Assembly: GCF_030684315.1 (NCBI RefSeq)
Contig: NC_081391.1
Span: forward strand, 13,307,342-13,371,341
Direction: 5' to 3'
From: Stegostoma tigrinum
Taxonomy: Eukaryota
Length of the DNA: 64,000 bases
The notes under the pieces were generated by a model. The model had not been told where the DNA came from, ran no database searches, and saw nothing but the letters and a program-made list of their open reading frames with translations. Positions 1 through 64,000 of this stretch are shown piece by piece; the first letter of the stretch is position 1, and every line of letters starts with the position of its first letter. The position numbers were made by a program, and so were the translations under genes.

Positions 1-21
1 TCCCTGGAGGACAGCAGTTAG
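1..21 (+). CDS. 3' end of exon 4 of an upstream ferritin copy (copy 0, truncated by window edge)
   Basis: TCC CTG GAG GAC AGC AGT TAG = SLEDSS*, identical to the exon-4 ends of the other copies; followed by the same 3' UTR with AATAAA at 149-154. Confidence 0.9.
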   Translation, partial: SLEDSS

Positions 22-1329
22 TGTGGCCTGGAGTACTGTCTGCTTGGTCTGAATGCATTCCCCACTTCACCCTGGACAACCTGTCTCCTTCCAGGGAGAA
101 GGGACTTGGAGCAAAGAATGTGATGGCTGTACCAGCTGAATGGGAATGAATAAAATCATGTATTGATCTTGTTTATTGTCCATCATTCAGAGCACTGGAT
201 ATTTTGGGAAATGTCTTATTGAGCGTGAAGGCAGTCCTCTTTCTGTAGTTTGGCTGACCCAATTACTAATTGGACATGAAAACAACTTTTCAATGGATGT
301 ATTTACTAACTCTCGATCATTGCACAGTAACTAGTTGGACTTGCTTTTTCTCATGACACAGACTCAAGACTTTCCCCTCTTAATAGGATGAGGTTGGTGT
401 TTCCACAATTGTGGGATGGAAAATCTTCCAGAGGTCAATTAGTACACTTCTGGATACTGTAGGTTCAATTGTAGTTCAGAACTTGTCTTCCTTTTTGAAA
501 CAGGAAGTTCCCGTACCTTCTCTAAGGGATAAACCAGACGCCCATTCCATAGAATCTGGGATATCTACGTTCAATGCCAGGTTTCCCTTCCTACAGCCTC
601 CACTCAGTCACCACGAGCAATGAGATTTGTCACTCGGACACTAATCTAATGGGAAGACAAGTCTGTGATCTGGAGGCTGGATCAGTTGACAAAATGCTGG
701 CGGGAGTAGATATATCAAGTTCTGCTCTCAATCCAGTTGCAGGAACCAGCTAAGTTAGGAAAGACACAGGCTTGATTCATCTGGTGTAACCTCCCCAGCG
801 AGGCCCTACCATGACCAGTATTTTCTATTCTCAGCGTTGTTGTTTTTGGCCTCCTGTGGATGTAGCCTAGGGATCTTGGAGCCGGTTATGGATCAAAGCA
901 GGACCAGCACTGGAGGCCTGTGACCTTCTCTTTCTCCCCATCTCTTGTTCCAGCTAACTGCAGTTGCACCCCCTGCCTGGTTCAATCCCTCTTGACAGTT
1001 CTGAGGAAGGGTGGCTGGACTCACTGTGGGTTGGCTTTTTCATTCCTCCATCTGAGTAACATAGCCCGCTCCATCTTTGCTCACGAAGGAGTCAGTCCAC
1101 ACTGGCGCTGAGCTTTTCCCAATAGCAATCCAAAATTGTCTTTAATGTGGCATCCTCCCCTTCTTCCTCCACCACACCCCCCTTCTCTTCCCAGCGTTCA
1201 CTCCAACAAGCTACCCAGCCCAGATCTGGGAAAATTCAGCACAAACGTTTGCAGAAGCCACTTACCAACAGGTCAGCTGGAATTCCCCTGATCTGTATGA
1301 GATTACAATGTCTGCTCTTGATGCTAACC

Positions 1330-1600
1330 TCCTGCTCAGGGACACCCTGTTCCCTTAATCCCACATTTCCCATGGCTAATCTAACAAATCCGAATGCCCC
1401 TTGTCACTGTCAGCAATTATCTTTGCCAATCGACCTAATCTGCAACCCATTGGACTAGGGGAGGGAGTCGGAGCAGATGGTGGAAATCCATGCAGACGCA
1501 GGGAGAATGTGCAAACTCCACGCATGTTGCCAAAGGCTCGAATTGAACCAGAGTCCCTGTGGCTGTGACGTATCAGTGCTCACCACTGAGCCCCCATCAC
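1330..1600 (-). mobile_element. Degenerate tRNA-derived SINE (HE1/V-SINE-like)
   Basis: Reverse complement reads GGCTCAGTGGTGAGCACTG...CAGGGACTCTGGTTCAATTCGAG...GTGGAGTTTGCACATTCTCCCTGCGTCTGCATGGATTTCC, i.e. A/B-box tRNA head plus the V-SINE-type core as recalled. Boundaries approximate; paralogous copy at ~59195-59465. Confidence 0.7.
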
Positions 1601-2926: not shown

Positions 2927-3114
2927 AGGTCAAAGGTCAGTCAGCAATTCCATCATCGACCAGTTGTCAATTCTGATCGGTTTCTGGATCCAATTCCCAT
3001 CCTGCACTGATTGGACGTGGCAACTGATCAATTGAGTAACAAGAGTAATTGGCCATCACTGATGATGCCATTTCCTGCTTCACAAAGTGAGGGTCTGCTC
3101 CTGGAGCATAAATA
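2927..3114 (+). promoter_or_regulatory. Core promoter of ferritin copy 1: DR1 site, inverted CCAAT boxes, TATA variant
   Basis: AGGTCAAAGGTCA at 2927-2939; CTGATTGG ~3007-3014 and AATTGGCC ~3047; CATAAATA at 3107-3114, about 100 nt before the ATG; same layout in the paralogs. Confidence 0.7.
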
Positions 3115-4029
3115 ACGTCCTAAGAGAATGCTGTTTTAGGTGTAGTTGGTTTTCTTTTTCTAGTTATAATTTGATTGTGAAGGAAAAGGAAAGTTGTTTC
3201 TATCACAAGATGGCCTCCCAGATCAGTCAGAACTATCACCAGGATTGTGAAGCTGCTGTCAACAAGCAGATTAATGTGGAGCTCACTGCCTCCTATCTCT
3301 ATCAGTCTTTGGTGAGTGTCCCTGTAGTGTTGGATTTAAATCTGTTATGAAGTGAACTTTTTCTTAAAAAACTAGATTAACACTCTTGTAGACTTTTCTT
3401 TGTATCTCTTGCCTATTTCTTGAGTCAGGGTAAATGTGATGACAATGGGATATGATACTGATATGCAGCAACTGAGGCCCCAGTTGTCTCAATGATATAG
3501 GGAGGGTGAAGCATCTTGTGATTTATCTTAAAATTCCTTTTAGGGCTGTGATTGCCTATAACTGACCGTGGTTCTCCATAATTTTCTAAACTACTGTCAA
3601 GTTTTGATGATCAAGATAACATTTGGCTAATTACCTTTTTTAAATCTGCCTTGATGTATCTATTTTAATTTTCAGCATGTAAATAAACAAACAAACATAC
3701 TGATTTTGGTATTTACAATGAAGTGTTGTAGTAATTTGACCAATCAGATTTGGTTAAGCTGAACTCTAGTCCTCCAGGTAAAACAGGCTGCTACCTACTT
3801 AAGTAGGTCTCCTATATTTTGGCTTCTTGTACTCTATCATGAGGTGGGTTTGATCCATCACTTCACAACCTATAGATAGTTGACTTGTGGGTGCCCTGCA
3901 CCCACCCCCGCCCCACCAGGGCTGCTGGAACATGCTGAGGCTATTGACCCAGAGGTGAAGAAATAAATGTTCTTCCTTTACCATTTAACCAGATAAAGAA
4001 ACAAACTGGCTCCTCCCACCATGTGGTGG

Positions 4030-4260: not shown

Positions 4261-5907
4261 CGAAGCTGCCTCTAAATGACATGAGGATCAAGCCCCTATA
4301 ACCTACCTTTTTGGGAGGTGGAACAGCTTTAACTAGTGAACCAATTGTTGGGTTTTAGTCACTGACCACTGTCCCAACTCAATAGGGAATCTTGTGTGCT
4401 GATAATAAAATCCCCACTATTCTACACCTTCTATGACTTAACTACCCCATTAAACCACTTTTTTTTAACTTTTTTTGTTTTTATTTGAGGATTAAACTAA
4501 CTTTTCACCAGGATTCCACCCAAGAACGAAATCTTCTTTTGAAGAAGTCAATAGACTACTCCTAATCAACAATAACTTGTTGGATTGTGAATCTCAGTTG
4601 AAAAGTGAGTGAAATGAGTGGGGAAACAATAGTTTAGATCTTGGAATAAGCTAAATTGAGCTCTCCAGCTTTGCAATCTATAGATCATGTGACTTGTTCA
4701 TAGTCCTGCAGATACTATTAGGTCTCCTGAACATTCGATCTTGTTTCAGTTGTGAATTTTTTTAATGCTTTGCTTTGCAAGCTTCTGGCAACCTGAGTGC
4801 ACTGCATAAACAAATGTGATAAACTATTGCTGCAACAAGCCAAAGGCTATCACTGGGCAGGCTCTCCTTTAGCACCAAGATTCTCCAAATTGCCCTCATT
4901 CTCCTGCATACTGCAAACAGCATCTCTTGTAGAGCTGCTTTATGTAAAGAAAAAATACAGTACATCTGATCCAACTGGTTGCAGAAGACCTGTACCTACT
5001 CGCTACATTCATGTCCAGCATCTGCATGCTACTCTAGCACCAGGGGAGACATGTAATGACTTGAAGTTGCCTGACCCTGTGCACATCCTGCATTCCAGCT
5101 CCTGGCACTTGGTTAAACCCTATTCAGTTACCACTTCCATCCAATTCTGGAGGCTAGATGGCAGAAATGTGCATTCAGCTTTTCTATCTAGGCTGTGCCA
5201 GACCCACACCCCCAAACAATTCAGCAGGGTTTATAAACCCAAACACTGAAATTGTATCTTACATGGAAGAAGCTGGGGTTGTTTGGTTTCCTCCAATTAA
5301 AGGAGCTGCTGGCTAACTTTGCAACACCATTAGTGAACATTGTAAGGTGTCAACAATTTTCAGCTGATTGAATCATTAGTTTGCTTTAGACTAAACCAGT
5401 CCTCCAGTTCTGAGCATGAGAAATGGGGTCAATGATGTGTTTAATGGGCTTTAACTTTTGTTCTCCCTTCCAGATGTCCTACTTTGACCGGGATGATGTT
5501 GCCCTCGCCCATGTCTCCCGGTTCTTCAAAGATCAGTCCCAAGAGAAGCAGGAACATGCAGAGAAGCTGCTGAAATTCCAGAATCAGCGTGGAGGCAGAG
5601 TCCTCCTCCAGGATGTGAAGGTTGGAGTTTTTGGTGGGGGGTTGTGTGGCAGTGTGCAGGAATGGCAGCTCATGGTGTTTTCTGTCATTAGTGACAGGAT
5701 TTTCACGTGGTAAAGGGTGTGTAGGTTAGAGTTGGAGAACTTAGGCAGTGGGGAGGAGATGTGAGAAATGGCTGCTTGTGGTGAGGTTTCATGTCCTGAA
5801 AGAAAGTGAAAACTGTTCTTGTTTGGCTCCCCTCCTTTTGACTAAAAGGGAAGATCCTCGAAACAAGCCTCTTGGCTCCCCTCCACCTGCTGCTTCTCCA
5901 CACCGCG

Positions 5908-10911: not shown

Positions 10912-11100
10912 AGGTCAAAGGTCATTTCAGCAATTTCATCATCAACCAGTTGTCAATTCTGATTGGTTTTTTGACCCGATTCCCATCCTGCACTGATTGG
11001 ATGTGGCAGCTGATCAAGTGATTAACAAGAGTGTTTGGCCATCACTGATGATCTCATTTCCTGCTTCATAAAATGAGTGTTGGCTCCTGGAGTATAAATA
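10912..11100 (+). promoter_or_regulatory. Core promoter of copy 2 (DR1, CCAAT, TATA)
   Basis: AGGTCAAAGGTCA 10912-10924; CTGATTGG; TATAAATA 11093-11100. Confidence 0.7.
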
Positions 11101-18907: not shown

Positions 18908-20366
18908 ATGAGGATAGCAAAGGTCATTACCCTGTTCAGAGGATAGCAAATGTGGTTCCCCTGTGCAAGAAGGGGAGTAGAGACAAACCTGGTAATTGTA
19001 GACCAGTCAGCCTTACCTCAGTTGTTGGTAAAGTGTTGAAAAAGGTTATAAGGGATAGGATTTATAATTATCTCAAAGAATAAATTGGTTAGGGATAGTC
19101 AGCACGGTTTTGCGAAGGGAAGGTCGTGCCTCACAAACCTTATTGAATTCTTTCAGAAGGTGAGCAAACAGGTATTTGAGAGTAAACCGGTTGATGTGGT
19201 GCATATGGATTTCAGCAAGTCGTTCGATAAGGTTCGCCACAGTAGGCTATTGTACAAAATGCGGAGGAATGGAATTGTGGGAGATATAGCAGTTTGGATC
19301 GGAAATTGGCTTGCTGAAAGAAGACAGAGGGTGGTAGTTGATGGGAAATGTTCATCCTGGAGACCAGTTACTAGTGGTGTACTGCAAGGGTCGGTGTTGG
19401 GTCCACTGCTGTTTGTCATTTTTATAAATGACCTGGATGAGTTTGTAGAAGGATGGGTTAGTAAATTTGCAGACGACACTAAGGTCAGTGGAGTTGTGGA
19501 TAGTGACGAAGGCAGCTGTAGGTCGCAGAGAGACATAGATAAGCTGCAGGGCTGGGCTGAGAAGTGGCAAATGGAATTTAATGCAGACAGGTGTGAGGTG
19601 ATGCACTTTTGTAGGAGTAACTGGAAGGCAAAGTACAGGGCTAATGGTAAGATTCTTGGTGGTGTAGATGAGCAGAGAGATCTCGGTGTCCATGTACACA
19701 GATCCTTGAAAGTTGCCACCCAGGTTGACAGGGTGGTTTAGAAGGCATACAATGTTTTGGCTTTTACTAATAGAAGGATTGAGTTCCAGAACCAAGAGGT
19801 TATGGCGAAGCTGTACAAAACTCTGGTTAGGCCGCACTTGGAGTATTGTGTACAGTTCTGGTCACCCCATTATAAGAAGGATGTAGAAGCTTTGGAAAGG
19901 GTGCAGAGGAGATTTACTAGGATGTTGCCTGGTATGGAGGGAAGGTCTTACGAGGAAATGCTGAGGGGCTTGAGGCTGTTTTCATTCGAGAGAAGAAGGC
20001 TGAGAGGTGACTTAATTGAAACATATAAAATAATTCGAGGGTTGGATAAGGAGAGCCTTTTTCCTCGGATGGTGACAGCGAGCACGAGGGGGCATTGCTT
20101 TAAATTGAGGTGTGAACGATATAGGACAGATTTCAGAGGTAGTTTCTCTACTCAGAGTAGTGAGGGAATGGAACGCTTTGCCTGCAACGGTAGTAGATTC
20201 ACCAACTTTAGGTACATTTGAGTCGTCATTGGACGAGCATATGGACGTACATGGAATAGTGTTGGTTAGATGGGCTCCATATCGGTATGACTGGTCGGCA
20301 CAACATCGAGGGCCGAAGGGCCTGTACTGTGCTGTAATGTTCGATGTTTTATGTTCTATATTCTAT
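18908..20366 (+). mobile_element. 5'-truncated CR1 LINE (RT domain) inserted upstream of copy 3
   Basis: ORFs 19085-19741 and 19757-20221 carry [44 protein letters not shown]; in-frame TAG at 19739; (ATGTTCT)-like tail to ~20366; interrupts the CAAA(G)GGCTCCAACAC sequence that is contiguous in copy 2 (~10723-10740). Confidence 0.93.
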
Positions 20367-20550: not shown

Positions 20551-20737
20551 AGGTCAAAGGTCATTCAGCAATTCCATCATCGGCCAGTTGTCAACTGTGA
20601 TTCGTTTCTGGATCCAGTTCCCATCCTGCACTGATTGGACGTGGCAGCTGATCAACTGATCATCAAGGTGATTGGCCATCACTGATGATGTCATTTCCTG
20701 CTTCATAAAAAGAGGGTCTGCCCCTGGGGTATAAATA
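20551..20737 (+). promoter_or_regulatory. Core promoter of copy 3 (DR1, two CCAAT, TATA)
   Basis: AGGTCAAAGGTCA 20551-20563; CTGATTGG and GTGATTGG; TATAAATA 20730-20737. Confidence 0.7.
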
Positions 20738-23800: not shown

Positions 23801-24985
23801 TCCAGCAGATGGACACTGGTGCAAATGACTAATCTGGTACATTTTTATTCCCTGTGGTACAAGGATACGTTCCTGAGCTTCCGGCTTCAGGTCAAGGATA
23901 AATGGGGCAAGGTGAAAGGAGTCACCAAGTAGCTAATGTTTTCTTTACCTGGACTTCAGGGATGGCACAGTGGCTCAGTGGTTGGCACTGTTGACTCAGT
24001 GCCAGGGGCACCAGTTTGGTTCTGGCCTGTGACGAGAATTTAAACGTTATCCCAAAGCATGGCTTCCCCACACAGTAGAAAAGAGGATTGGCAACTTGAA
24101 ATGCAGGTTACACGAACAGGGTGGGAATGGGACCAGATGGGATGCTCTTCAGCAGTTATGGTCTCAATGGGGTGAATGGCCAGCTCCCATGCTGCAGGGA
24201 TTCTGTTTCTAAAGCTTACCTGTCCTTCTCTCCATCCCCAGAAGCCAGAGAGGGATGAGTGGGGTAACAATCTGCAGGCAATGCAGGTTGCCCTGGATCT
24301 GGAGAAGAATGTGAACCAGAGTTTGCTGGATCTCCACCAACTCGCCACAGCACAGACTGACCCTCATGTAAGCTTCACCTCCTCATTCACATCACTGCTA
24401 GACTCTCAGGGTAATGTTTCATTGGTTGGTCTGTGTGGATTGGAAATTCACTAATGTAACACTTTCCATCCATTACTTTCCTGAACTATTGTAACATTGA
24501 TCACTTGGGATCATACTGATTACAATGAGGTATAAGGGGAATTTGATCTATAATCTAGTGGAAGTGCTGAAATGACGTTGGCCACTGAGTTCTTCGTTAG
24601 TATCATTGCAGTGGAATGATCATTGTCCATCACAATCCAACTCAGCTCCATTTCACAAACAGCAAGATGGAGCAGCTGACATGTTGTCCTCACTGGCATA
24701 AATTCTCCAGGTGTTAGCTCGCTTTTCAGGGCTGTCCAGAGCTAGTCATGGCTAAGTCTGTCTTGCAGAGGGAATTCTGAAATTGTCTTGGATAGTGTTA
24801 ATGTACCAAGTGTCATATTCCTCTTGCAGCTGTGTGACTTCCTGGAGACTCACTATTTGGATGAGGAGGTGGAGATCATCAAGCAACTCGGGGACTACAT
24901 CACCAACCTGAAGCGCCTGGGAGCCCCTGAGAATGGGATGGGAGAGTACCTGTTTGACAGGCTCTCCCTGGAGGACAGCAGTTAG
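20823..24985 (+). CDS. Ferritin copy 3 (lineage C), intact 176 aa; exons 20823-20924, 22687-22833, 24242-24367, 24830-24985
   Basis: Exon lengths 102/147/126/156, GT-AG junctions, no stops; private DQDD and WGNNL. Confidence 0.92.
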
Positions 24986-30206: not shown

Positions 30207-33200
30207 ATGGCCTCCCAGATTCGTCAGAACTATCACCAGGATTGTGAAGCTGCTGTCAACAAGCAGATTAATGTGGAGCTCACTGCCTCCTATCTCTATC
30301 AGTCTTTGGTGAGTTTTGTCTTGATGGAGTTAAAATTAAATCTATTCTGCAAAAATGAGCTGATCCTCTTGTTTCAAATTAACTTCATAGTCTTGTAGAT
30401 TTGAGGTGTTTCAGTTTGCACCTTTAAAAATCATTTTGGGATAAATGTGATGCCCTTTGGTGACAATGGATTTTGATATTGATGTACAGTATCTAATTCA
30501 CCAGCTGGGATTGAGTGATAGATGGAGGGCAAATTGTTCTGTGAATTATTTTACAATTTACTGCCAGGCCTTTGCCTGGTGGTAACTGTCATTTTCCTCC
30601 CCAGAATTGACCAGACTTTACTAAAATTAGATGTAATGGTGTTGGGAGTTGTATGCACCCCTTGGCTAGTCATCCTGTAACATTTTAATATACCTTGATC
30701 ACACTTACTTTGTGCTCTGATCCTAAATACACATCATGCCAGTTTCCATTCTGTGATGGAGAATGATGGCAGTGACTGGCTTCTCTGAGCATATGCACGT
30801 GTAACTTGCATTGAGGAGGCCTCAGATGTGGACTAGTTGGCTTTCTGCATTCTCAGTTCATGAATGGACTGTTAGTGGTCAGGAAGTCACTTGTTGTCCA
30901 TTCCTCCAATACATCAATGCTCTCCTGTGAGTGCATGCACAGGGTGTCTGGAATAACCTGAGGTCTTCACTTCACCAAAAAAGGTGAAGAATTGGAGTTT
31001 CAAATTCCCACGGTATGGGAAATGGTGCCTTTCTCCAGGGAGCACTGTGCCTATGGCCTCTCAAAATGGCAGGCTATAATGGTTTGGAAATGTTGAAGCA
31101 GCTTTTGAAGGCTGCTAGGTACCTGGTAGATAGTGGACACTAGGAGTGCATTCACTCACTCCCTTCAATGAGGTGGGCTGCTCTGTCCTGCATAGTGTCT
31201 GCTTTGTGCATGTTGCAGCTCCACTTCTTGGGGGGAAAAAGGGAGAATATTCATCCCTCGTGGGGCTTATCACTGAGAAGCATTCTCTTCCCACGCTTTC
31301 AGGATGAAATCCCTGTACCCTTCCCTTTAGCAGGTGGGAACAGCTATCACCAATAAGCCTGTTGGGTCTTAACTGTCAGTGGTGTCCCATATCAATTGGG
31401 CAGCATGTGCCCAAACAACCCACTATTGTACATCTGTAAGATGCAGCTACCCAAGTAAAGTCAGAGAAAGTTGCATAACTGTTTTTAGACGAAAGAAACT
31501 TCTCAGCCTGATCAGTAGGAACTAGATAACCTGCTCTAACAAGGTGTAGAGCTGGATGAACACAGCAGGCCAAGCAGCATCGGGGGAGCAGGGAAGCTGA
31601 TGTTTTGGGCCTGGACCCTTGAGAAATGGGGAGGGGAAGAGGTCCCTGAAATAGCAAGGGGTGGGGAGGTGGATGGATGAGGGATCAAGAAACAGGTGGT
31701 GAGGAGACTCCGGTCTGAGGTAAGGATGGAGCCAATAAAGTCAAGTGAGTTGGGTAGGCCTGTCCAGGGAGGTGGGGATGGGGTTTGAGGTGGCGGGGGA
31801 GGTGGGGTGGGGTGGTGTGGGGAAGTAGGTGGGAGGAAGGATGGACAAGTTAGGGAGGTGGGGACTAGCTGAGCTGTGACTGGGGGAAGGGAGATCTTTC
31901 AGCTTAAGTCCTCACTGATACCATTGGGCTGCAGGGTTCCCAAGCAGAATACAAGGTGCTGTTCCTGCAACCTTTGGGTGGCATTGGAGGCCCAGAATGA
32001 ACATCAACTGTCCCCTCCTGCTCCTCTGGAGGGGAAGTAGTTTGTGACTGGGAGGTGCAGCTGCTGATCACGAGCCCAGCATAGGCACTCCACAAAGTGG
32101 TGTCAAGCCTCTGCTCGGCTTTCCTGATGTAGAGGAGGCCACGTTAGGAACAGTGGGTACAGTATATCTCACTGCAGATGTGTAGGTCCACTTCTTCTTG
32201 ATGTGGAAGGTCTTGGGGCCTGGGATGAGGGGAGGTGTAGCACAATCTGTGTGGCAGGAAAAAAGCCCTGGCTAGTGGAATGGACAAGGGAATCAGTGGT
32301 CTCTCCAGAAGGCAGCTAAGGTTGGGGAGGTAAAAAAATGTCTTTGTCAGATCGTAGATGGGATAAGTGCCAGAGGATGCTGCACTGGATCCTGTCATTG
32401 AGGTGGTACTGAAGGATGAGAGGATTCTGTTTTGGTTGTGTGCGGGATAAGATGCAAGACCGGTTGTGTTTTTCTTCCACTAAAGGGAAGTTACGCTCCC
32501 TCGGAAAACGAGGACATCTGGGATGCCCAGGAGTAGAATGCCTCCCCTCAGGGCTGGAGGTGAAGGAATTGGATTAGGGGATGGCGTTTTCCTTCCACAG
32601 GAAGGTGGGTAAGGTGTATTCTAGGTAGCTGTAGGAGTCAGTAGGTTTGAAATAGATCAAAGATTGATCGACAAACTTAAGGTTGAGGTAGAAGGCTCTA
32701 ATGAATTAGAGGAACCGTTCAAGCTCCTTGTGGGATGTAATGGAGGAAGATGTGGAGTTTATGGCCCATCTCCCTGTAGAAGGATTGTTCCACATATCCT
32801 AACAGAAGCAGGCACAGCCTGGGCCCATGCAGGTACCTATGGCCACCCCCTTCCTCTGTAGGAGGTGGGAGGAATTGAAGGAGAAGTTAGGGGTGAGGAT
32901 GAGTTGGCTAGTGGACAAGGTTGTTGGTGAATGAGGACCAGTCAGGCCTGCAGGATGAGAGAAGCAGAGGGCCTTCGGCTATCTCCATGGGGAATGGATG
33001 AGGTTGGAGGCTGTGGGTGGGAGGTCATCTCCAGTGAGGTTGTAGATGGACGAGGAGATGGTTTGGTGGTCAGGGGTGGAGTCATGATCAAGGGCGGGGT
33101 GGTAGGAGGTATCGGCTGCTCTTCCACACAACTACATGTGGAACTCCAGCTCCTGGCATTTCCTTAAACCCTGTTCAGTCACGAACTTCATCCAATTCTG

Positions 33201-34771
33201 ATGGTGCTTAGAGTGGAAATGTTCTTCTCTCTACAGACAAGAACAGGCCTGGGCACCTCAGGTTTTTGTCAAGGAATTTTAAAAAGTGTTTGCCTGGTTA
33301 CCAGGAGGAGGCGAGGGTTGTTCTTGATGATCCTTGAACTGGAGCCACTGGCTCATTGGACAATGGTTCTCATCCACCTTGATGTATTCAAAAAAGTCAT
33401 GTTTATTGACTTCTCAATTTGATTGAAGGCTAAACCAGTCATGTCTGGCACCAATTGTATGATGCTTAATGGGTATAACTTGTTTTCTCCCAGATGTCCT
33501 ACTTTGACCGGGACGATGTTGCCGTCCCCCATGTCTCCCAGTTCTTCAAAGATCAGTCCCAGGAGAAGCAGGAACATGCAGAGAAGCTGCTGAAATTCCA
33601 GAATCAGCATGGAGGCAGTCCTCCTCCAGGATGTGAAGGTTGGTGTTGGGTTTTTGGGGTGGGGGGAGTTGGGTGGTAGAGAGTGGCTGCTCCTCAGGGA
33701 TGGCACAGTGACTCAGTGTTTCCCATGCATGCCTCAGTGCCAGGGATCCAAGTTTGGTTCTTGGTTCTAGGCTCCAGTGAATGACTGACGTTTACTTGCT
33801 CTTGCCATGTCCACATTGGCTTCACGGTTCAATGATGTGTGGGTTAGAAGGATTGCCATTTAAAATGCAGGGTTACACGAATAAGAAGGGACTTGTAGCG
33901 ACGAATGTAGTGGCTGTGCCTGCCGATTGGGGATGAATAAAATGATGTCGTGACCTTGGTTATTGTCACCATGACTCAAATAGCCTGTTCCCATGCTGCA
34001 GAGATTGTGAAGCTTACCTGTCCTCTCTCCATCCGCAGAAGCCAGAGAGGGATGAGTGGGGTAACAGCCTGCAGGCAATGCAGGTCGCCCTGGATCTGGA
34101 GAAGAATGTGAACCAGAGTTGGCTGGATATGCACCTAGTCGCCACAGCCCAGACTGACCCTCATGTTAGCCTTCCCACCACCTCATTCTGATCACTGCTG
34201 GGCCCTCAGGGCAACACCTCATTGGTCTTTTGTAGATTAAAATTCACTCGGATACTTGGATCACAATGTAATATCTGAACAGTATGTTCATTTAATCAAC
34301 ATCAAAGCAGCTCAGCTATGAGCTGAAATGGGAATTTGGATTCACTACCAGGAGTGATGTTGGCCAATGAATTCACTCTCAGGGCCACTTGCATTAGAAT
34401 GATCATCGTCTGTCACAGTTCAGCTCAGCTCCATTTCACAAACAAGAAGGTGCATCTGGAACGTTACTGTCCTCACTGGCGCAACATCTCCTAGATGTCA
34501 GTGGCTTTTCCAGCTGTCGAGGGCCAGTTATGGTGGGGTCTGTTTCGCAGTGGGAATTCTGAAAATTTCCTGGATCATGCAAATGTACCAAGTTGCCATA
34601 ATTCCTCTGTTGCAGCTGTGTGACTTCCTGGAGACCCACTATTTGGATGAGGAGGAGGAGATCATCAAGCAACTTGGGGACTACATCACCAACCTGAAGT
34701 GCCTGGGAGCCCCTGAGAATGGGATGGGAGAGTACCTGTTTGACAGGCTCTCCCTGGAGGACAGCAGTTTG
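30207..34771 (+). pseudogene. Ferritin copy 4 (lineage D) pseudogene; exons 30207-30308, 33494-33638, 34039-34164, 34616-34771
   Basis: 2-nt deletion in exon 2 (GGCAGTC vs GGCAGAGTC; 145 nt); stop codon TAG changed to TTG (frame open to 34861); excess substitutions (QHGG, QSWLDMHL, EEEE, KCL); TATA decayed to TAAAAAAAA at ~30104; DR1 still intact at 29924-29936. Confidence 0.88.
31538..33115 (-). mobile_element. Degenerate Penelope-like retroelement (RT + GIY-YIG) in intron 1 of copy 4
   Basis: Minus-strand translation gives TSSIPHGD (~32980-33005; cf. YTSIPH), GVAIGTCMGP (~32821-32850; cf. GVAMG..MGP) and IYCTHCS*RGLLYIRKAEQRL (~32105-32168; cf. GIY-YIG VIY..C..C...YIGETKRRL); terminal pLTR-like segment at 31540-31625. 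Confidence 0.8.
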
Positions 34772-37653: not shown

Positions 37654-37841
37654 AGGTCAAAGGTTAAGCAGCAATTCTATCATCGACCAGTTGTCAATTC
37701 TGATCGGTTTCTGGATCCAATTCCCATCCTGCACTGATTGGATGTGGCAGCTGATCAAGTGATTAACAAGAGTGTTTGGCCATCACTGATGATCTCATTT
37801 CCTGCTTCAGAAAATGAGTGTTGGCTCCTGGAGTATAAATA
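37654..37841 (+). promoter_or_regulatory. Core promoter of copy 5 (DR1 with 1 mismatch, CCAAT, TATA)
   Basis: AGGTCAAAGGTTA 37654-37666; TATAAATA 37834-37841. Confidence 0.65.
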
Positions 37842-44959: not shown

Positions 44960-46420
44960 GATGAGGATAGCAAAGGTCATTCCCCTGTTCAGAGGATAGC
45001 AAATGTGGTTCCCCTGTGCAAGAAGGGGAGTAGAGACAACCTGGTAATTGTAGACCAGTCAGCCTTACCTCAGTTGTTGGTAAAGTGTTGAAAAAGGTTA
45101 TAAGGGATAGGATTTATAATTATCTAGAAAAGAATAAATTGGTTAGGGATAGTCAGCACGGTTTTGTGAAGGGAAGGTCGTGCCTCACAAACCTTATTGA
45201 GTTCTTTCAGAAGGTGAGCAAACAGGTATTTGAGAGTAAACCGGTTGATGTGGTGCATATGGATTTCAGCAAGTCGTTCGATAAGGTTCGCCACAGTAGG
45301 CTATTGTACAAAATGCGGAGGAATGGAATTGTGGGAGATATAGCAGTTTGGATTGGAAATTGGCTTGCTGAAAAAAGACAGAGGGTGGTAGTTGATGGAA
45401 AATGTTCATCCTGGAGACCAGTTACTAGTGGTGTACTGCAAGGGTCGGTGTTGGGTCCACTGCTGTTTGTCATTTTTATAAATGACCTGGATGAGTTTGT
45501 AGAAGGATGGGTTAGTAAATTTGCAGACGACACTAAGGTCAGTGGAGTTGTGGACAGTGACGAAGGATGCTGTAGGTCGCAGAGAGACATCGATAAGCTG
45601 CAGAGCTGGGCTGAGAAGTGGCAAATGGAGTTTAATGCAGACAGGTGTGAGGTGATGCACTTTTGTAGGAGTAACTGGAAGGCAAAGTACAGGGCTAATG
45701 GTAAGATTCTTGGTGGTGTGGATGAGCAGAGAGATCTCGGTGTCCATGTACACAGATCCTTGAAAGTTGCCACCCAGGTTGACAGGGTGGTTTAGAAGGC
45801 ATACAACGTTTTGGCTTTTATTCATCGAGGGATTGAGTTCCAGAACCAAGAGGTTATGGCGAAGCTGTACAAAACTCTGGTTAGGCCGCACTTGGAGTAT
45901 TGTGTACAGTTCTGGTCACCCCATTATAAGAAGGATGTAGAAGCTTTGGAAAGGGTGCAGAGGAGATTTACTAGGATGTTGCCTGGTATGGAGGGAAGGT
46001 CTTACGAGGAAATGCTGAGGGACTTGAGGCTGTTTTCATTCGAGAGAAGAAGGCTGAGAGGTGACTTAATTGAAACATATGAAATAATTAGAGGGTTGGA
46101 TAAGGAGAGCCTTTTTCCTAGGATGGTGACAGCGAGCACGAGGGGGCATTGCTTTAAATTGAGGTGTGAACGATATAGGACAGATTTCAGAGGTAGTTTC
46201 TCTACTCAGAGTAGTGAGGGAATGGAACGCTTTGCCTGCAACGGTAGTAGATTCGCCAACTTGAGGTACATTTCAGTCGTCATTGGACGAGCATATGGAC
46301 GTACATGGAATAGTGTAGGTTAGATGGGCTCCATATCGGTATGACTGGTCGGCACAACATCGAGGGCCGAAGGGCCTGTACTGTGCTGTAATGTTCTATG
46401 TTTTATGTTCTATATTCTAT
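44960..46420 (+). mobile_element. 5'-truncated CR1 LINE upstream of copy 6 (duplicate of 18908-20366)
   Basis: ORFs 45085-45795 and 45811-46323 nearly identical to those of the first copy, with the same internal TAG and the same insertion site. Confidence 0.93.
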
Positions 46421-46604: not shown

Positions 46605-46792
46605 AGGTCAAAGCTCATTCAGCAATTCCATCATCGACCAGTTGTCAACTGTGATTCGTTTCTGGATCCAGTTCCCATCCTGCACTGATTGGATGTGGCA
46701 GCTGATCAACTGATCATCAAGAGTGATTGGCCATCACTGATGATGTCATTTCCTGCTTCATAAAAAGAGGGTCAGCCCCTGGGGTATAAATA
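46605..46792 (+). promoter_or_regulatory. Core promoter of copy 6 (DR1 with 1 mismatch, CCAAT, TATA)
   Basis: AGGTCAAAGCTCA 46605-46617; TATAAATA 46785-46792. Confidence 0.65.
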
Positions 46793-53057: not shown

Positions 53058-56000
53058 ATGAGTTCCCAGATCAGTCAGAACTGTCACCAGGATTGTGAAG
53101 CTGCTGTCAAAAGGCAGATTAATGTGGAGCTCACTGCCTCCTATCTCTATCAGTCTTTGGTGAGTGCTGTCCCTGTGGGGTTAAAACTTGATCTATGATG
53201 TTGAAGTAAATGGTTTCTCTTGAATTTAATTAACTGGACCCTCTCTCTTTGTAGATTGAGTTTTGTAGTCCTTTCCTAAATATTAATTCAGGATAAGGGC
53301 AATGTTACTATACCAATGGAGTTTGATAATGATGTACTCTGAAGCTGGGTCCCAGTTGGGCTTCAGAGATATGTGGAGGATGAAGTGTCCCTGGAGAAAT
53401 TTGCCAGTTTGGTGTTTGAATTGGCAGTAGATGTCATTCCCTCTAAGATTACCAAATGTTGGTAGGGTTACTTCAGAAAGGTATTATATTGATCAGACTG
53501 TGGGACTAGAATCACCCACTGGCTAGTTACCCTCTTTCTGACAGGTTTAAGTATCTGATTTTATATTTGCTTGCTTTTGTGGTGATACTTAAATATCAAT
53601 TCTGATATTGACAATGATAATTCCCTATTGCAGTCTGCTGTGGCTAATCCGAGCAAACCTACTTGAGGTTAGGCTGTGAGTGACTGGTATCTGACTTTTT
53701 AAAGTAGATCTCAGATGAGGCCTGCTTGGCATTTTGCACTCTCATCATGAGATGGGTGTGGCCTATCCCTGAACCTGTAGAAAGTTGATCTGCTTTAGTG
53801 TGTGGCGTGTTGAAGCTTCTGCAAACCATGTTTGCCTCCTGCCCCCTCACCCACACCCTGCATCCCCTCGAGCTGCTGGAGTCTGAGATTCATGGTCCAG
53901 TCTCTATGCCATCCTGATAGGGAACAAACTGTCCCCTTTAGCCAGGTGGCAGTGAACCTGTAACTTTCCAATGGGTAGAATGTTTCAGACAGTAGGAACA
54001 GCGGATGCTGGAGAATCTGAGATAACAAGGTGCAGAGCTGAATGAACACAGCAGGCCAAGCAGCATCAGAGGAGCAGGAAGGCTGATGTCTTGGGGCATG
54101 ACCCTTCTGAAGGTGGGCCTAGGCCCAAAACAGCAGCCTTCCTGCTCCTCTGCTTGGCCTGATGTGTTCATCCAGCTCTACATCATCGTATCTCAAGGGG
54201 TAGAATGTGTTTGGAAGGTGTGTGTTGAAGTAACCTTGGTGAGTGCTGCAGGGGACCTGGTAGATAATGGACCCTGAAAGGAGGTGGTGAATGCAGTCCC
54301 CATGAAGTGGGCTGCTCTGTCCTGGATGGTGTCTGCATCTTGAATGTTGTAGCTCCACCTCCACAGACACATGGAGAATCTTCTTCACTCTCAGCTTTTG
54401 TCTGTTAGAAAGAAGATGCCTCATGACAGATGGATGAAGCCCGTATAAACTCCATTTGGGAGGTGGGTACAGCTTTCATTGGTGAGCCAGTTGACGGGTT
54501 TTAATTACTGACCAGGGTCCCAATTCCCTTGGGGAACACGTGTGCCAATTATAAAATCCTTCCTATTCTCTCCTGCCACAGCTTGTTCCTACCCCGTTAA
54601 ACAGACAAGAAATTTTGTTTGACTGCTTCTACATGAAGACAATAACTTCCCACCAGGCTTCCTCGACAACAAAACTCTTAGCTCCTGTTTCAAATATCAG
54701 AAGAATAGCCCTTCATAAACCTCAAGGCATTGGATTGTGAATATCTCGGTTCGGAAGTGAGTCACATGTGGGTGGACAAACAACAGAACGGTGCCAGCTG
54801 GGATAAGCCAAACTTTGTTGTCCAGCTTTGTGTTAACTAGTGACGTTAGATCAGCCATTATCTGTAGATACAGGTCACATTGGTTCTTTCTCTCCAATAT
54901 TTGACCTTCCCTCAGTTTGATTCAATTTGTTTTGTTCATGTGACCCTTGTTCTCCCCCTTCTGGATGTGAGTGCACTAATTTTAGTGTGCTATAAACTAT
55001 AACTGCAACAATCCAGAGGCAGTTACTGGGTAGGTTTTCCTTTGCACTATCTTGTTGTCGCTTTCTCTCATTCGCCTCTATTATATCTTGTAGTCATAAA
55101 ATATACCGTACATTCAATCTCCCTGGTTTTGAGGCCACAGAAACCTTGCTTCTTCCTGGTTATATTGTTACAGCAGTGTCTAACATGTATTTCCATGCCA
55201 GCCCCAAAGGAGCAATAGTGTTGCAGCTCCGCTACTCAAGTATAGCCTGCACTCCAGCTCCTGGTGCTTGTTTCAGCTGTTTTTTAGGCTCTAAATTTGT
55301 CCAATTCAAATGAAGGTTAGTGAGTGCAAACATGGCTGGATACAAGAAGAGCTATAATGCTGTGCCAGGCAGCCTGAGCAATTTACTGTTTGTTTTAAGC
55401 CAAACTTTTGCCAGTTTCCAACAGGAAATTGGGATTGTTCTGTTTGATCCCAGTTGAAGGATCTGCTGGACAGCTGGACATCATTGGGTTCTCAAACATG
55501 TTCACATACCAGGCAGTTAGTTTGCTGCAGAAGGCTGAACTAGAATTTGGAGTCAGTGCTGTGTTTAATGGGCTTTAACATGTTATCTCCCTTCCAGATG
55601 TCCTACTTTGACCGGGATGATGTGGCCCTCCCCCACTTCTCCAGGTTCTTCAAAGATCAGTCCCGGGAGAAGCAGGAACATGCAGAGAAGCTGCTGAAAT
55701 TCCAGAATCAGCGTGGAGGCCGAGTCCTCCTCCAGGATGTGAAGGTTGGAGTTGGGTGGGAGGGTTGCAGCTGTGGAGGAGAGAATGGCAGCTCTTGTGG
55801 TGCTGCGTCCTGTTGGGATGTGAAAATCCTCTTTTGGCCTGGCTTCCCTGTTTGATTTCTTTTGAAGGCAGTTTCTAAACAAGCCCTATTGTCCACCGTG
55901 TCTATGCTGCCCACAAACATCAAACTACATTAACACAATTTCCTGCACTTAGTCCACAGCCGACTATCTTCTGGCATGAAGAAGTTGTTGAGATTAGGCT

Positions 56001-57788
56001 TCAATGTTGCTGGAGTAACTGCCTCCACTGACCCCTCAGGTAATGCATCCCATACCTCTCCCACCCTCCATTGGGTGGGTGGGTCCTCCAATCTCCTCAA
56101 ACCTGTGCCATCTGGTCTTCATGTCTGCCATGGGGACTGTGTATTGTCCATCCTCCCTGATCTTCCACACTTCCATCAGATCACCATCCCAGGCTATCCA
56201 ACCTCCCTCTCATCATTGTATTTTTGTTGTCTTTTTTTGCTTCCATCTTGGGCCAACATCCTGATGACCCTCACCTGTACCCCCTGCAGTGCCACCTTGT
56301 CCCTCTGATGGTGGTTCTGGTCACCACACTACATTCCATCTTTGGTCTGGCCAATGCTGCCATGTTTGTGGCAAGACTCATCCTTTCTACTGAGCCCCAA
56401 ATCATGGAGACCAGCATCATGTCAGCCCCTTCCCCACTCTGTCTACCTTTGCTGAACCTTGAGGGATGGACTTGGGCATTTGTTGCTTGTCCCTTTTACT
56501 GTAAGCACATTGCTCCCTTCAATGAATTAAATAGTAGTGATGTCTGATCATCCTGCTCAGACATGGATGAAGCCACCAGCACAGGTGAGACATAGATGCC
56601 TGGCCTGCAAGGTGCAGATTGGTACTCTACCTCAAGAGCCCTTGAGACTAAGGTGTCAATGTCCTGATCTAAACGCCAAATGGGCACTGGTGCAAACAGT
56701 TGAACTTTGTGTGAAATAAATCCCTAGCCCACAATGACTTCATGCTTCAGATCAAGGATAAATGGAGCAAAGTGAAGTCACTTCACAAGTAATGAATGTG
56801 GGTTTTAGGGGTGGCACAGTTGCTCAGTGCCAGGGACACAGGTTTAGCTCTGGCCTCTGATGACTGGTGCTTACATGTTCAGGTTTCTTCCTACAGTCCA
56901 AATATGGGCAGGCTGGGTGAAGTAGCCATGGGGGAATTGCAGTGCGAATGGCTCAGGTAAATCTGAGATCTTCTTCAGAAGGTTGATTGCAGACTCAATG
57001 GGCTGAATGGCCTGCTCCCATGCTGCGGCGAGTCTCTGATTCTGAAGCTTAACTGTTCCTGTTTCCATCCTCAGAAGCCTGAGAGGGATGAGTGGGGTAA
57101 CAGTCTGCAGGCAATGCAGGTTGCCCTGGATGTGGAGAAGAATGTGAACCAGAGTTTGCTGGATCTACACCAACTCGCCACAGCCCAGACTGACCCTCAT
57201 GCAAGCTTCACCTCTTCATTCTCATCACTGCCATGCCTCCTCAACTTCATTGGTTGGTCTTTGTGGAGTGGAAATTCGCAGACGTAACTTTGTCCAGATG
57301 CTACATTGTACCTTTGTCATCATAATTATGATGACAATGTTAAACTGCTCAACACCGAACTGAAATAGGAATTTGGATTACAGTCTAGTGGGAATGCTGA
57401 TGTGATTTTTGGCTGCTGAATTGGGGATTGTTGCACTATACAATACAACTTGGAGATCTTTAAGAAGGTGAGATGAAGCAGCTGAAATGTCCTCACTGGC
57501 ACAAATTCTCCACCTGTTAGCTAGATTTTCAGGGATGTCTAGAACTAGCTATGGCTCAGTCTTTTTCAGTAGGAATTGTGAAGTTGTCTTGGATAGTATA
57601 AATGTACCAAGTGTCATATTCCTCTGTTGCAGCTGTGTGACTTCCTGGAGACTCACTATTTGGATGAGGAGGTGGAGATCATCAAGCAACTCGGGGACTA
57701 CATCACCAACCTGAAGCGCCTGGGAGCCCCTGAGAATGGGATGGGAGAGTACCTGTTTGACAGGCTCTCCCTGGAGGACAGCAGTTAG
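53058..57788 (+). pseudogene. Ferritin copy 7 (lineage E): open frame but promoter deleted and GC donor; exons 53058-53159, 55598-55744, 57075-57200, 57633-57788
   Basis: Exons are in frame ([20 protein letters not shown]...), but only ~38 nt of the paralogous 5' UTR remain upstream with no DR1/CCAAT/TATA; intron-3 donor is CAT|GCAAGC instead of CAT|GTAAGC. Functional status uncertain. Confidence 0.6.
53984..54193. mobile_element. Short Penelope-derived inverted-repeat insertion in intron 1 of copy 7
   Basis: Inverted arms (~54019-54106 / ~54108-54194) homologous to 31538-31625; flanked by CAATGGGTAGAATGT (53969-53983) and CAAGGGGTAGAATGT (54194-54208), a site that is single in the paralogs. 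Confidence 0.75.
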
Positions 57789-59717: not shown

Positions 59718-59900
59718 AGGTCAAAGGTCATTCAGCAATTCCATCATCCACCAGTTGTCAATTCTGGTTTCTGGATCCAATTCCCATCCTGCACTGATTG
59801 GACGTGGCAACTGATCAATTGATTAACAAGAGTGATTGGCCATCACTGATGATGTCATTTCCTGCTCAAAAAATGAGGGTCTTCTCCTGGAGTATAAATA
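59718..59900 (+). promoter_or_regulatory. Core promoter of copy 8 (DR1, two CCAAT, TATA)
   Basis: AGGTCAAAGGTCA 59718-59730; TATAAATA 59893-59900. Confidence 0.7.
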
Positions 59901-59995
59901 GAGCCCAATGGCATTGCTATTTTAGGTGTAGCTGATTTTCTTTCTATATTTATAATTTGGTTTTGTTGGATAAGGAAAGCTGTTTCTATCACAAA

Positions 59996-62602
59996 ATGGC
60001 CTCCCAGATCAGTCAGAACTATCACCAGGATTGTGAAGCTGCTGTCAACAAGCAGATTAATGTGGAGCTCACTGCCTCCTATCTCTATCAGTCTTTGGTG
60101 AGTGCTGTCCCTGTGGGGTTGGAGTTACTTCTGTTATGAAGTGAACTGTTTTTTTTTAAAACAAACTAGATTAATACTCTTGTATAATAAAATGTGAGGC
60201 TGGATGAACACAACCAGGCCAAGCAGCATCTCAGGAGCACACATTTAGCTTTTGTGCTCCTGAGATGCTGCTTGGCCTGCTGTGTTCATCCAGCCTCACA
60301 TTTTATTATCTTGGAATTCTCCAGCATCTGCAGTTCCCATTATCTTTAACACTCTTGTAGACTTGTTTGTTTTTTTTGTATCTCTCTTAGCTATTTCTTG
60401 ATTCAGCGTAAATGTGGTGATAATGGGATATGATACTGATATGCAGCAACTGAGGCCCCAGTTGTCTCAATGATATATGGAGGGTGAAGCATCTTGTGAT
60501 TTATCTTAGAATTCCTTTTAGGGCTGTGATTGCCTATAACTGGCTGTGGCTCTCCATAATTTTCTAAACTACTGTCAAGCTTTGATCCAGATAACCATTG
60601 GCTAACTACCTTTTTAAATCTGCCTTGATGTATCTGCTTTAGTTTTGTGCATGTAAATAAACAAACATACTGGTTTTGGTATTTACAATAAGGTGTTGTA
60701 GTAATTTGACAAATCAGATTTTTTTAAGCTGAACTGAAGTCCTTGAGGTTAGACAAGCTGCTCCCTGCTTAAGTAGGTCTCCAATATTATTTTGGCTTTC
60801 TGTGCTCTATATAATGAAGTGGGTTTGATCCATCACTTAACAACCTATAGAAAGTTGACTTGTTATAGGTGCCTGCCCCCCCTGACCCCCCCCCCCCCCC
60901 CCCCCCCAAAGGGGGCTGCTGGAACATGCTGAGGCTATTGACCCAGAGGTGAAGAAATAAATGTTCTTCCTTTACCATTTAACCAGATAAAGAAACAAAC
61001 TGGCTCCTCCCACCATGTGGTGGTGCCCCTGTGCCCTTCCAAGGAGTAGAATGTGTTCAGAAGGTGTTGAGGTCCCCTTGGTGAGTGCTGCAGGGGACCT
61101 GGTAGATAATGGACCCTGAAAGGAGGTGGTGAATGCAGTCCCCACGAAGTGGGCTGCTCTGTCCTGGATGGTGTCTGCTTCTTGCACGTTGCAGCTCCAC
61201 TTCTCCAGACACATGGAGAATATTCATCACTCTCTGGGCTTGTGCCTATTGGAAGGAAGTCCTATCTAGGGACATGAGGATAAAGTCCCTATAACTACCT
61301 TTTTGGGAGGTGGGAGTAGCTTTAACTAGTGAACCAATTGTTGGGTTTTAGTCACTGACCACTGTCCCAACTCAATAGGGAATCTTGTGTGCTGATAATA
61401 AAATCCCCACTATTCTACACCTTCTACAACTTAACTACCCATTTAAACTACTTTTTCAACTTTTAGTTTGTATTTGAGGATCAAACTAACCTCTCACCAG
61501 GATTCTACCAAAGAACAACTTCTTCTTTTGATGTCAATAGACTATTCCTAATCAGCAGTAACTTGTTGGATTGTGAATCTCAGTTGACAAGTGAGTGAAA
61601 TGAGTGGGGAAAACAATAGTTTAGCCTCTTGGAATAAGCTAAATTGAGCTCTCCAGCTTTGAACAAGTCAATCTATAGGTCATACAGTCCTGCAGATACC
61701 ATTAGGTCTCCTGAACATTTGATCTTGTTTCAGTTGTGAATTTTAATGCTTTGCTTTGCAAGCTTCTGGCAACCTGAGTGCATGGCATAAACAAATGTGA
61801 CAAACTATTGCTGCAACAAGCCAAAGGCTGTCACTGGGCAGGCTCTCCTTTAGCACCAAGATTCTCCTAATCGCCCTCATTCTCCTGCATACTGCAAACA
61901 GCATCTCTTGTAGAGCTGCTTTATGTAAAAAAAAAAATACAGTACATCTGATCCAATTGGTTGCAGAAGACCTGTACCTACTAGCTATATTAATGTCCAG
62001 CATCTGCATGCTACTCTAGCACCAGGGGAGACATGTAATGACTTGAAGTTGCCTGACCCTGTGCACATCCTGCATTCCAGCTCCTGGCACTTGTTTAAAC
62101 CCTATTCAGTTACCACTTCCATCCAGTTCTGGAGGCTGGATGGCAGAAATGTGCTTTCAGCTTTTCTGTCTAGGCTGTGCCAGACCCACACGCCCAAACA
62201 ATTCAGCAGGGTTTACAAACCAAAACACTGAATTTGCATCTTACATGGAAGAAGCTGGGGTTGTTTGGCTTCCTCCAATTAAAGGAGCTGCTGGCTAATT
62301 TTGTAACACCATTAGTGAACATTGTAAGGTGTCAACAATTTTCAGCTGATTGAATCATTAGTTTGCTTTAGACTAAACCAGTCCTCCAGTTCTGAGCATG
62401 AGAAATGAGGTCAATCATGTGTTTAATGGGCTTTAACATGTTATCTCCCTTCTAGATGTCGTACTTTGACCGGGATGTTGTTGCCCTCGCCCATGTCTCC
62501 CGGTTCTTCAAACATCAGTCCCAGGAGAAGCAGGAACATGCAGAGAAGCTGCTGAAATTCCAGAATCAGCGTGGAGGCAGAGTCCTCCTCCAGGATGTGA
62601 AG
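59996..62602 (+). CDS. Ferritin copy 8 (lineage A), partial: exons 59996-60097 and 62456-62602; exons 3-4 lie beyond the window
   Basis: Both exons in frame with GT-AG; introns closely match copy 1; private DRDVV. Confidence 0.85.
60185..60345. mobile_element. 161-bp Penelope-derived palindromic insertion with 14-bp target duplication in intron 1 of copy 8
   Basis: Arms 60184-60241 and 60253-60309 are near-perfect reverse complements; flanked by TTAATACTCTTGTA (60171-60184) and TTAACACTCTTGTA (60346-60359); empty site in copy 1 at 3377-3390. Confidence 0.85.
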
Positions 62603-64000
62603 GTTGGAGTTTGGGAGGGGGGCGTGGTGTGGTGTGCAGGAATAGTAGCTCATGGTGTTTTTGGTCACTAGTGACAAGATTCACATGTGGTAAAGGATGT
62701 GAAGGTTGGAGTTGGAGAAAGCAGGCAGTGGGGAGGAGATGTGAGAAATGGCTGCTTATGGTGTGGTTTCATGTCCTGAAAGAAAGTGAAAACTGTTTTG
62801 TTTGGCTCCCCTCCTTTTGACTAAAAGGAAAGAAATCCCAGAAACAAGCCTCTTGGCTCCCCTCCACCTGCTGCTTCTCCCCCCACCCCCCCCCCCCCCC
62901 CCAACCCATGCTGACCCAACAAACACCAAACCACATTAATCCCATTTACTGCACTTGGTCTACAGCCCCCATGGCATTGGTAGTTGTCTAGAAGCTGCTT
63001 AAATATTGCAGCAGTAGATGCCTCCCCCACTGCCCCACCCCCCCATATTATTTTTCCACTACCCTCTGGGCAAAGGATTCCTCTAACCTGCTGACTCCTC
63101 ACATCAGTGCCCTCTGGTCTTAATGTCTCTTTCTCCCCACCCCCTCATAGCAGACACTCCCCATCTACTATCAAGACTCCACACTAATCAAATGCCATCA
63201 CATAAACATCTCAACTGACTTCACTCTGGGGATTGGAGTGAGAAATCTAATCTTCCTTTTAATGGATTTTTCAGTCTTGGGGCAACATCCTGGTGACCCT
63301 TCCAGTGCCATTGTGGCTCTGGTCACCACACTGTATTCCACCTTTGCATGGCCAATGCTGCAAAGTTTGTGACAAGACTGGAGTCCCTGTACTGCGCCCC
63401 AAGAAATGGGGAAGGGCATTGTGGAAGCCACCTTCCCCATCCTGTCTACACTTATGGATCCTTGAAATATCTCTAGTCTTGTTCTCTTGGTTCCTTTATT
63501 GTCAACATATTGCTGTCCCTTCAATGAATTAAATAGTAGTGATGCTTTTGATCATTCAGGTCAGTCCTATATGAAGCCATAAGCACAAGTGGGACTTCAA
63601 CCTGGGCCTATGCTCCAAACCTAGGGACAGTACCACTGCATTACGAGCCCTGGGATTAAGTTGTGAATATCCTCCTTGGGATGCCATCAGATGGGCACTG
63701 ACAATTCTGTGCAAACATAACTCTTATCCCCACTATGACCTGGTTGTGAATTGACTCTCCTTTCGTAAGAAGCAAATAGGGCTAGGTGAAAGCAATTCCT
63801 TAAATAACTGATCTGTTCTTCCTAAGGACTTCAGGGATGGCGGTGGTTAGCACAAATGCATCAGTGCTTGGGGCACGAGCTTAATTCTGGAGTTTACATG
63901 TTCACCACATCTCTACATAGGCTTCCTCCCACAGTCCAAAGATGTGCAGGGTAGGATAGGCCATGAAAAATGCAGGATTACATGGCTGGGACTAGGACCA

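Follow-up and report, generated by a model that had tools for sequence, protein, structure and literature searches.

What is a long tandem array of intron-containing ferritin genes for in a shark? The question is raised by a 64,000-nucleotide stretch of the 3.2-Gb genome of Stegostoma tigrinum, C50:13,307,342-13,371,341 (contig NC_081391.1), hereafter called the window. The original prediction, made from the letters of the window, described nine four-exon ferritin units on one strand, 6 to 10 kb apart and four of them intact, as members of an amplified array with a shared disabled ferroxidase site, no iron-responsive element (IRE), and a nuclear-receptor promoter. The array, its strand, the spacing, and the four intact copies all stand; however, only seven of the nine units are complete, and the other two are cut by the window ends. 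The surrounding DNA places the window inside a far larger array, A1, and a second ferritin array, A2, lies on the same contig. We propose, with a probability of roughly 55%, that A1 subunits, which are predicted to be noncatalytic, co-assemble with A2 subunits into 24-mer cages that stockpile iron in growing oocytes as a maternal store.

Two ferritin arrays and their ferroxidase sites

Array A1 spans 12.987-14.404 Mb of C50 (1.42 Mb) and consists of four-exon ferritin genes on one strand, with exon lengths (102/147/126/156) as in the heavy-chain (H) gene and with matches to the ferritin-domain Pfam family PF00210. Exact matches to an exon-4 motif that is specific to the array and contains the Glu141 codon give at least 159 copies, all on the same strand; every one of the first 100 of these 159 places falls inside A1. 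Because the motif recovers 88/96 exon-4 models in sampled DNA, the copy estimate for A1 is ~170. The amplified array of at least nine copies, open at both ends, that was predicted from the window is thus borne out on extension. Gene models drawn from ~58% of the array number 100, of which 92 have four exons, 64 are without defects, and 63 are full length; about 30% (28/92) of the four-exon models are broken. A database protein labeled as Stegostoma tigrinum shares 100% identity with one A1 copy. On the left flank of A1, no gene was identified among the best 150 of 3,864 candidate frames scored.

Array A2 lies at C50:19.95-21.56 Mb, 5.5 Mb from A1, with genes on both strands, and part of it is also found on C216, an unplaced contig. 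The A2 motif occurs 234 times in the genome, with at least 4 occurrences falling outside A2, and sampling yielded 54 A2 gene models (33 intact). An inverted duplication within A2 (L124-L142, C50:20.60-20.79 Mb) has plus-strand genes mirrored by minus-strand genes with matching defects. A stretch in or close to the left part of the array (L103-L122, C50:19.87-20.07 Mb) contains 32,993 N bases, and A2 may be incomplete there.

Solved H chains and database mammalian H proteins served to anchor the residue numbering. All sampled intact full-length A1 copies carry Lys62 and Glu141 (63/63 for each), as do all window copies that include the relevant exon (8/8 for Lys62 in exon 2 and 7/7 for Glu141 in exon 4). 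Among the same 63 copies, Glu27 and Glu107 are invariant, and His65, Tyr34, and Glu61 are present in 62, 61, and 59, respectively. Intact A2 copies have all seven ligands (Glu27, Tyr34, Glu61, Glu62, His65, Glu107, and Gln141) in 33/33 cases. Glu62 and Gln141 are ferroxidase-center ligands, E62K is the light-chain replacement, and E62K together with H65G abolishes ferroxidase activity (PMC6929972, PMC10114856). From its residues, the A1 subunit is predicted to be without ferroxidase activity; the shared change at this site is as originally described, with "disabled" to be read as a prediction of this kind.

The A1 residues are those of light (L) chains. Among 11 aligned tetrapod L chains, Lys62 is present in 11/11 and Glu141 in 10/11, and the L chain of Xenopus tropicalis (P0212) has a Glu27/Lys62/His65/Glu141 set identical to that of A1. 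The three-fold iron pore (His118/Cys130/Asp131/Glu134) is found in 63/63 A1 copies. The features by which FTH1 would be recognized are absent from A1: its ligand set is not intact, and it has neither a 5′ IRE nor BEST1 in a tail-to-tail arrangement. Flanking genes had been suggested as a guide to an FTL-type or FTH1-type identity; A1 lies beside neither BEST nor GYS.

Among the aligned rows with that column, position 23 is Lys in the A1 and A2 types and Gln or Asn in some mackerel-shark proteins; Arg23 is present in nearly all H, middle-chain (M), and L rows. In human H ferritin, Arg23 is essential for NCOA4 binding (PMC4592949). Five A1 copies read Lys-Arg in place of the Asn-Lys pair at positions 22-23, with Arg23 restored.

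Several ferroxidase ligands are changed in A2-type ray proteins (P0059, P0078, P0096, and P0116), which may point to additional losses of catalysis that occurred independently. A single-sequence AlphaFold2 model of P0095 had a mean predicted local distance difference test score of 42 and was discarded.

Regulation, transcription, and selection

The Rfam IRE model retrieved two sites only among 82 candidates scored across the genome, at the H gene on C20 and the M gene on C50. An Rfam scan of the whole window gave 0 matches, and a hairpin test for an upstream IRE, in which the H and M genes were positive, gave 0/63 for A1 and 0/33 for A2. The lack of an IRE noted in the window is thus confirmed for A1 and is common to both arrays.

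Promoters of the two arrays have a Y-box (58/63 A1 and 30/33 A2 copies; intron controls, 1 and 0; shuffles, <1), which is absent from the H and M genes, and a TATA element (49/63 and 23/33); these counts come from related copies and are hence not independent. The nuclear-receptor element DR1 is found 5′ of 7/8 window copies and in 38/63 A1 promoters, as originally predicted, but in 0/33 A2 promoters, so that the elements common to the arrays are the Y-box and TATA. Promoters with a Y-box and an E-box are typical of oocyte genes. An NR5A promoter site was rejected (0/49 A1 and 1/33 A2), and a TGATGTCA-like motif, present also in 24/63 intron controls, was set aside.

Transcription of both arrays is seen in run X6, from the organism in which all sampled sequence words occur. 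None of the runs is listed as RNA, and X6 was recognized as such by exon-only coverage and splice joints. At window copy 2, coverage is confined to exons and GT..AG joints are present at all three introns, and the same is true of an A2 gene. Placement on the A1 stretch was obtained for 37,300 of 714,730 X6 contigs, with many paralogue variants; the contig sets for A1 and A2 overlap in part, and contig depth was not used for copy number or level. In run X8, which is DNA, introns are covered and there are no splice joints. Runs X1 and X4 come from other organisms, have small shares, and were excluded from the evidence. A1 is thus not a silent array, an outcome that the original prediction had allowed for.

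Both arrays are under purifying selection, with a ratio of nonsynonymous to synonymous substitution rates (dN/dS) of 0.30 among 49 A1 copies and 0.27 among 33 A2 copies; dS between A1 and A2 is 0.68. Given spliced transcription, purifying selection, and the absence of an IRE, the high-dosage, iron-independent expression first suggested for the window is a fair reading. Intronless ferritin copies on other contigs have their best match in A2 in 4/5 cases, in A1 in 1/5, and in H or M in 0/5. That the five processed copies examined are all array derived fits strong germ line transcription of the arrays.

Origin and proposed function of the arrays

A tree was built from 38 of 78 rows with columns 62 and 141 excluded. 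It recovers an A1-type clade (Heptranchias, Mustelus, Cetorhinus, Chiloscyllium, and this genome; support, 100/100), an A2-type clade that includes a sawfish and a chimaera gene (97/91), and a tetrapod L clade (100/99); A1, A2, and tetrapod L form a polytomy inside a non-H branch (99/96). The Lys62 subfamily was found in Heptranchias, Mustelus, Cetorhinus, Carcharodon, Chiloscyllium, Hemiscyllium, and Stegostoma, that is, from sevengill to carpet sharks. Within the A1 type, Glu141 is confined to carpet sharks and is therefore convergent with L, and Lys62 is seen again in an M-type gene of a lizard (3 changes). The synonymous distance (pS) between A1 and A2 is 0.45, and distances to M are 0.59-0.61. 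This lower distance, together with the shared Lys23, promoter layout, and IRE loss, favors an origin of A1 from A2. A1 probably arose in this way inside the cartilaginous fishes, where it would have split from A2 and reached its light-chain state convergently.

Contig C50 carries RUVBL, BAX-like, DRAM/TMEM150-like, SAPS, and Snf7 genes, a set that we take to correspond to human 19q13, the FTL chromosome. Human FTL is linked to GYS1 in a BAX-FTL-GYS1 neighborhood. The BAX-like gene of C50 is 12 Mb from A1, and no GYS gene was found on C50 by a stricter search that can miss matches; GYS genes are on C20 and C33. In 20 loci flanking the H gene and both GYS genes, no ferritin exon was found. The glycogen synthase gene at C20:18.98-19.04 Mb is 0.9 Mb from the H ferritin gene.

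A1 is light-chain-like by its residues, though not necessarily a member of FTL. With tetrapod FTL, it has in common Lys62, Glu141, Leu173, and a 19q13-type chromosome, but it comprises ~170 copies rather than one, lacks an IRE, has Lys23 and a less acidic nucleation cluster than platypus L, and is not beside GYS. Amphibian FTL carries the database label "light chain, oocyte isoform." The M ferritins of fish and amphibians are, like A1, in the non-H branch, and an IRE-bearing M-type gene is on the contig of A1, at the A2 edge; M has all of the ferroxidase ligands, an IRE, and Arg23, however, and A1 is without all three. Snail and schistosome yolk ferritins, as far as they are described, resemble A1 in its proposed role, being egg directed and without an IRE. 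They are secreted invertebrate proteins of independent origin, whereas A1 starts at the ferritin core, without a signal peptide.

In the proposed oocyte store, A2 would oxidize Fe(II), and A1, with its iron pore kept, would act like a light chain in cage stability and mineral core capacity. Loss of the IRE in both arrays would let translation escape repression by iron regulatory proteins and run regardless of cell iron, and hundreds of copies with a Y-box and TATA would amplify dosage for the oocyte, a single cell type of very large size. Replacement of Arg23 in both arrays might, weakly, point to less NCOA4-driven turnover and a longer-lasting store. A1 would grow and decay via unequal crossing-over in multigene blocks. 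Recruitment for an iron-free role fits less well, as the expressed catalytic A2 points to a two-subunit iron store instead. We advance only tentatively, as a broader claim that may well prove wrong, that shark eggs reached a heavy/light division independently of tetrapods, more than 250 million years ago, with ~400 IRE-free genes in two separately amplified arrays, one catalytic and one not, with cages that also escape NCOA4-driven ferritinophagy, and with a copy ratio that sets the subunit ratio. If that is true, the expansion that has been linked with ferroptosis and longevity would serve to provision eggs with maternal iron.

Several points weigh against the proposed store and its origin. 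The published inactive mutant is the double mutant E62K/H65G, and A1 retains His65 (62/63) and Glu27. The nucleation cluster (positions 57/60/61/64) has two or three acids in A1, compared with four in platypus L and three in most reptile L. The Arg-to-Lys change at position 23 is conservative, and most nonmammalian L keep Arg23, so the residue alone is without predictive value for NCOA4. The grouping of A1 with A2 reaches only 68/74, and approximately unbiased (AU) tests reject none of the arrangements examined (A1+L, P = 0.29; A1+A2+L, P = 0.26; A1+H, P = 0.41). The promoter counts carry the nonindependence given above. Run X6 is listed without a tissue, so that expression in the oocytes of this species is a proposal. 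Some copies of the Greenland shark, whose clusters may correspond to either array, are expressed in fin and blood (PMC13214024).

The expansion itself has been reported and is not, as had seemed possible, undescribed. Sahm et al. (bioRxiv 10.1101/2024.09.09.611499) give 155 "FTL" and 179 "FTH1" copies in three clusters that are syntenic between Greenland and white sharks, the largest ferritin cluster of the Greenland shark being ovary specific. Yang et al. (PNAS 2026; PMC13214024) describe 59 FTH1b copies in two clusters, with more copies in sharks generally, and draw a link to ferroptosis. Like A1 and A2, the published clusters are huge, lie on one chromosome, are common to sharks, and consist of tandem ferritin genes that have introns and are mostly full length; their copies are labeled by similarity and not split into catalytic and noncatalytic. 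Neither text takes up ferroxidase residues or the IRE: "ferroxidase" and "IRE" have 0 mentions in PMC13214024, and "iron" has 0 in bioRxiv 10.1101/2024.09.09.611499. The literature searched held no description of the catalytic/noncatalytic split, the IRE loss, or the replacement of the arginine that binds NCOA4; outside that literature lay figures, bioRxiv supplements, and most subscription journals. Thus, the expansion and the ovary expression in the Greenland shark are already published, and the two-array anatomy (light-chain-like plus catalytic, IRE free, and cotranscribed) appears to be new. Ferritin is also known from amphibian eggs and fish ovaries (PMC1488847). An egg iron store would be a testable mechanism for the published but unexplained expansion, and a second, probably independent Glu62-to-Lys subunit would be a natural test of why light chains exist. 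The two-array split also bears on the origin of tetrapod FTL, and database labels ("middle," "heavy," or "higher" subunit) conceal the functional split of shark ferritins.

A1 could instead be a true orthologue of tetrapod FTL, with Lys62 having arisen once, before the split between sharks and bony vertebrates, a reading that differs from ours in origin only. Lys62, Leu173, and the C-terminal pattern are common to both, the chromosome is of the 19q13 type on the human gene map that we assume, FastTree joins A1 with L (support, 0.35), and the AU test retains that grouping. No better L-like gene was found among the best 150 of 1,640 candidates scored, nor was the gene that PMC13214024 labels "FTL" and assigns to the chromosome of FTH1a. 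We nevertheless regard orthology as unlikely, given that Glu141 is convergent, that Lys62 recurs in the lizard gene, and that A1 and A2 have Lys23, promoter layout, IRE loss, and a low pS in common. Still less likely is recruitment of A1, in cages of its own, for a bulk-protein job, such as an egg storage or structural protein or the binding of another ligand. Such a job would suit a subunit with a lost catalytic residue and a partly acidic nucleation cluster, with its own regulatory element (DR1) and a locus 5.5 Mb from A2. Against it, the iron entry pore is invariant (63/63), Lys62 is the very change used by light chains, and catalytic A2 is expressed in X6 too.

That the arrays form a somatic antioxidant or ferroptosis-tuning system, as PMC13214024 may be read, seems improbable to us. 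The fin and blood expression in the Greenland shark fits this view, as does a weak A1-like spliced contig in run X4, which is from another organism and was not counted. On the other side, the largest Greenland shark cluster is ovary specific (bioRxiv 10.1101/2024.09.09.611499), the processed copies come from the arrays, Arg23 loss would, if anything, uncouple the arrays from ferritinophagy, and PMC13214024 itself remarks that sharks that are not extremely long-lived also have many copies. We give slightly less credence again to the view that a few functional genes owe their copy number mostly to neutral runaway amplification or to assembly inflation. Two 40-kb A1 stretches (L163-L170 and L171-L178), separated by 127 kb, share 99.7% identity, and C216 matches A2 DNA at 98-99.7%; these likenesses may reflect recent duplication or haplotype duplication. 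The broken four-exon models (28/92) and a repeatedly copied promoter-less subfamily are also in line with this view. Against it, the intact A1 copies have 61 distinct coding sequences out of 63, and among 79 gene bodies with a partner, none has a nearest-neighbor identity of ≥99.9% (median, 98.6%). The dN/dS of 0.3, the many paralogue variants in RNA contigs, protein clusters of 43-180 members in other sharks, and two published assemblies of other sharks argue in the same direction. A1 is thus real and no assembly artifact, although near-identical blocks may inflate the exact counts.

Ferritin units of the window and other ferritin genes

Self-comparison of the window gives a 6-10 kb repeat unit with copies 70-97% alike, and its nine ferritin units, all on the plus strand, have start-to-start distances of 6.2-9.6 kb. 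Copies 2, 3, 5, and 6 are clearly intact and have a promoter; copies 1 and 4 are frameshifted. In window positions, bases 1..21 are the last 21 bases of exon 4, with the stop codon, of a preceding copy, which in extended DNA is broken (no ATG and a frameshift in exon 2). Copy 1 (exons at 3210-3311, 5474-5620, 7133-7257, and 7718-7873) is frameshifted by a 1-base deletion in exon 3, and its promoter (2927..3112) has DR1 (2927), a Y-box (3007), and a TATA-like element (3107). Copy 2 encodes 176 amino acids in exons at 11187-11288, 14120-14266, 15638-15763, and 16228-16383, behind a promoter (10912..11098) with DR1 (10912), Y-boxes (10959 and 10993), an E-box (11007), and TATA (11093). DR1, a Y-box, an E-box, and TATA are likewise present in the promoters of copy 3 (20551..20735; exons at 20823-20924, 22687-22833, 24242-24367, and 24830-24985), copy 5 (37654..37839; exons at 37928-38029, 40660-40806, 42180-42305, and 42769-42924), and copy 6 (46605..46790; exons at 46878-46979, 48733-48879, 50287-50412, and 50877-51032).

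Copy 4 (30207..34771), with promoter elements found by motif scan at 29924-30023, has a 2-base deletion in exon 2 and has lost its stop codon. Copy 7 (53058..57788) has an intact frame but lacks upstream promoter elements, and its third intron has a GC donor. It falls in a promoter-less open-frame subfamily (window 52700-57788) copied at least five times, with other copies at C50:13,168,102, 13,408,271, 13,498,281, and 13,573,062. Exons 1 and 2 of copy 8 (59996-60097 and 62456-62602) lie inside the window behind a promoter with DR1, a Y-box, and TATA (59718..59898), and this copy is intact once extended 844 bases beyond the window end. Spacers hold plus-strand fragments of long interspersed nuclear element reverse transcriptase (PF00078) at 19052..19738 and at 45034..45792, the latter co-duplicated with the unit by self-comparison.

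Elsewhere in the genome, processed ferritin pseudogenes (L179, L180, L181, L182, and L041) lie on C11, C5, C2, and C17, with one more candidate at C43:36.44 Mb. No alignment was obtained for a sixth intronless candidate locus, and a 16-mer match on C34 was due to chance, with no ferritin alignment there. The single H ferritin gene, on C20, has an IRE and is tail to tail with a bestrophin gene. At the right edge of A2, a single IRE-bearing M-type gene (C50:21.61 Mb) has intact ferroxidase ligands. A single divergent ferritin on the minus strand (C50:21,570,729-21,580,354; L030-L031) has Lys61, Gln65, an altered three-fold pore, and TATA and lacks an IRE; judged by these residues, it is a second, different loss of ferroxidase ligands. 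Mammalian mitochondrial ferritin is intronless. Another single four-exon ferritin, on the plus strand at C50:21.5915-21.6019 Mb (L032:1490-1760 and L033:170-1910), keeps its ferroxidase ligands intact and lacks an IRE. The DNA upstream of it is GC rich, and the reading frame is extended at the N terminus by ~55 residues, among which Arg, Leu, Gly, and Ser are abundant; this extension resembles a mitochondrial targeting peptide, here on a gene with introns.

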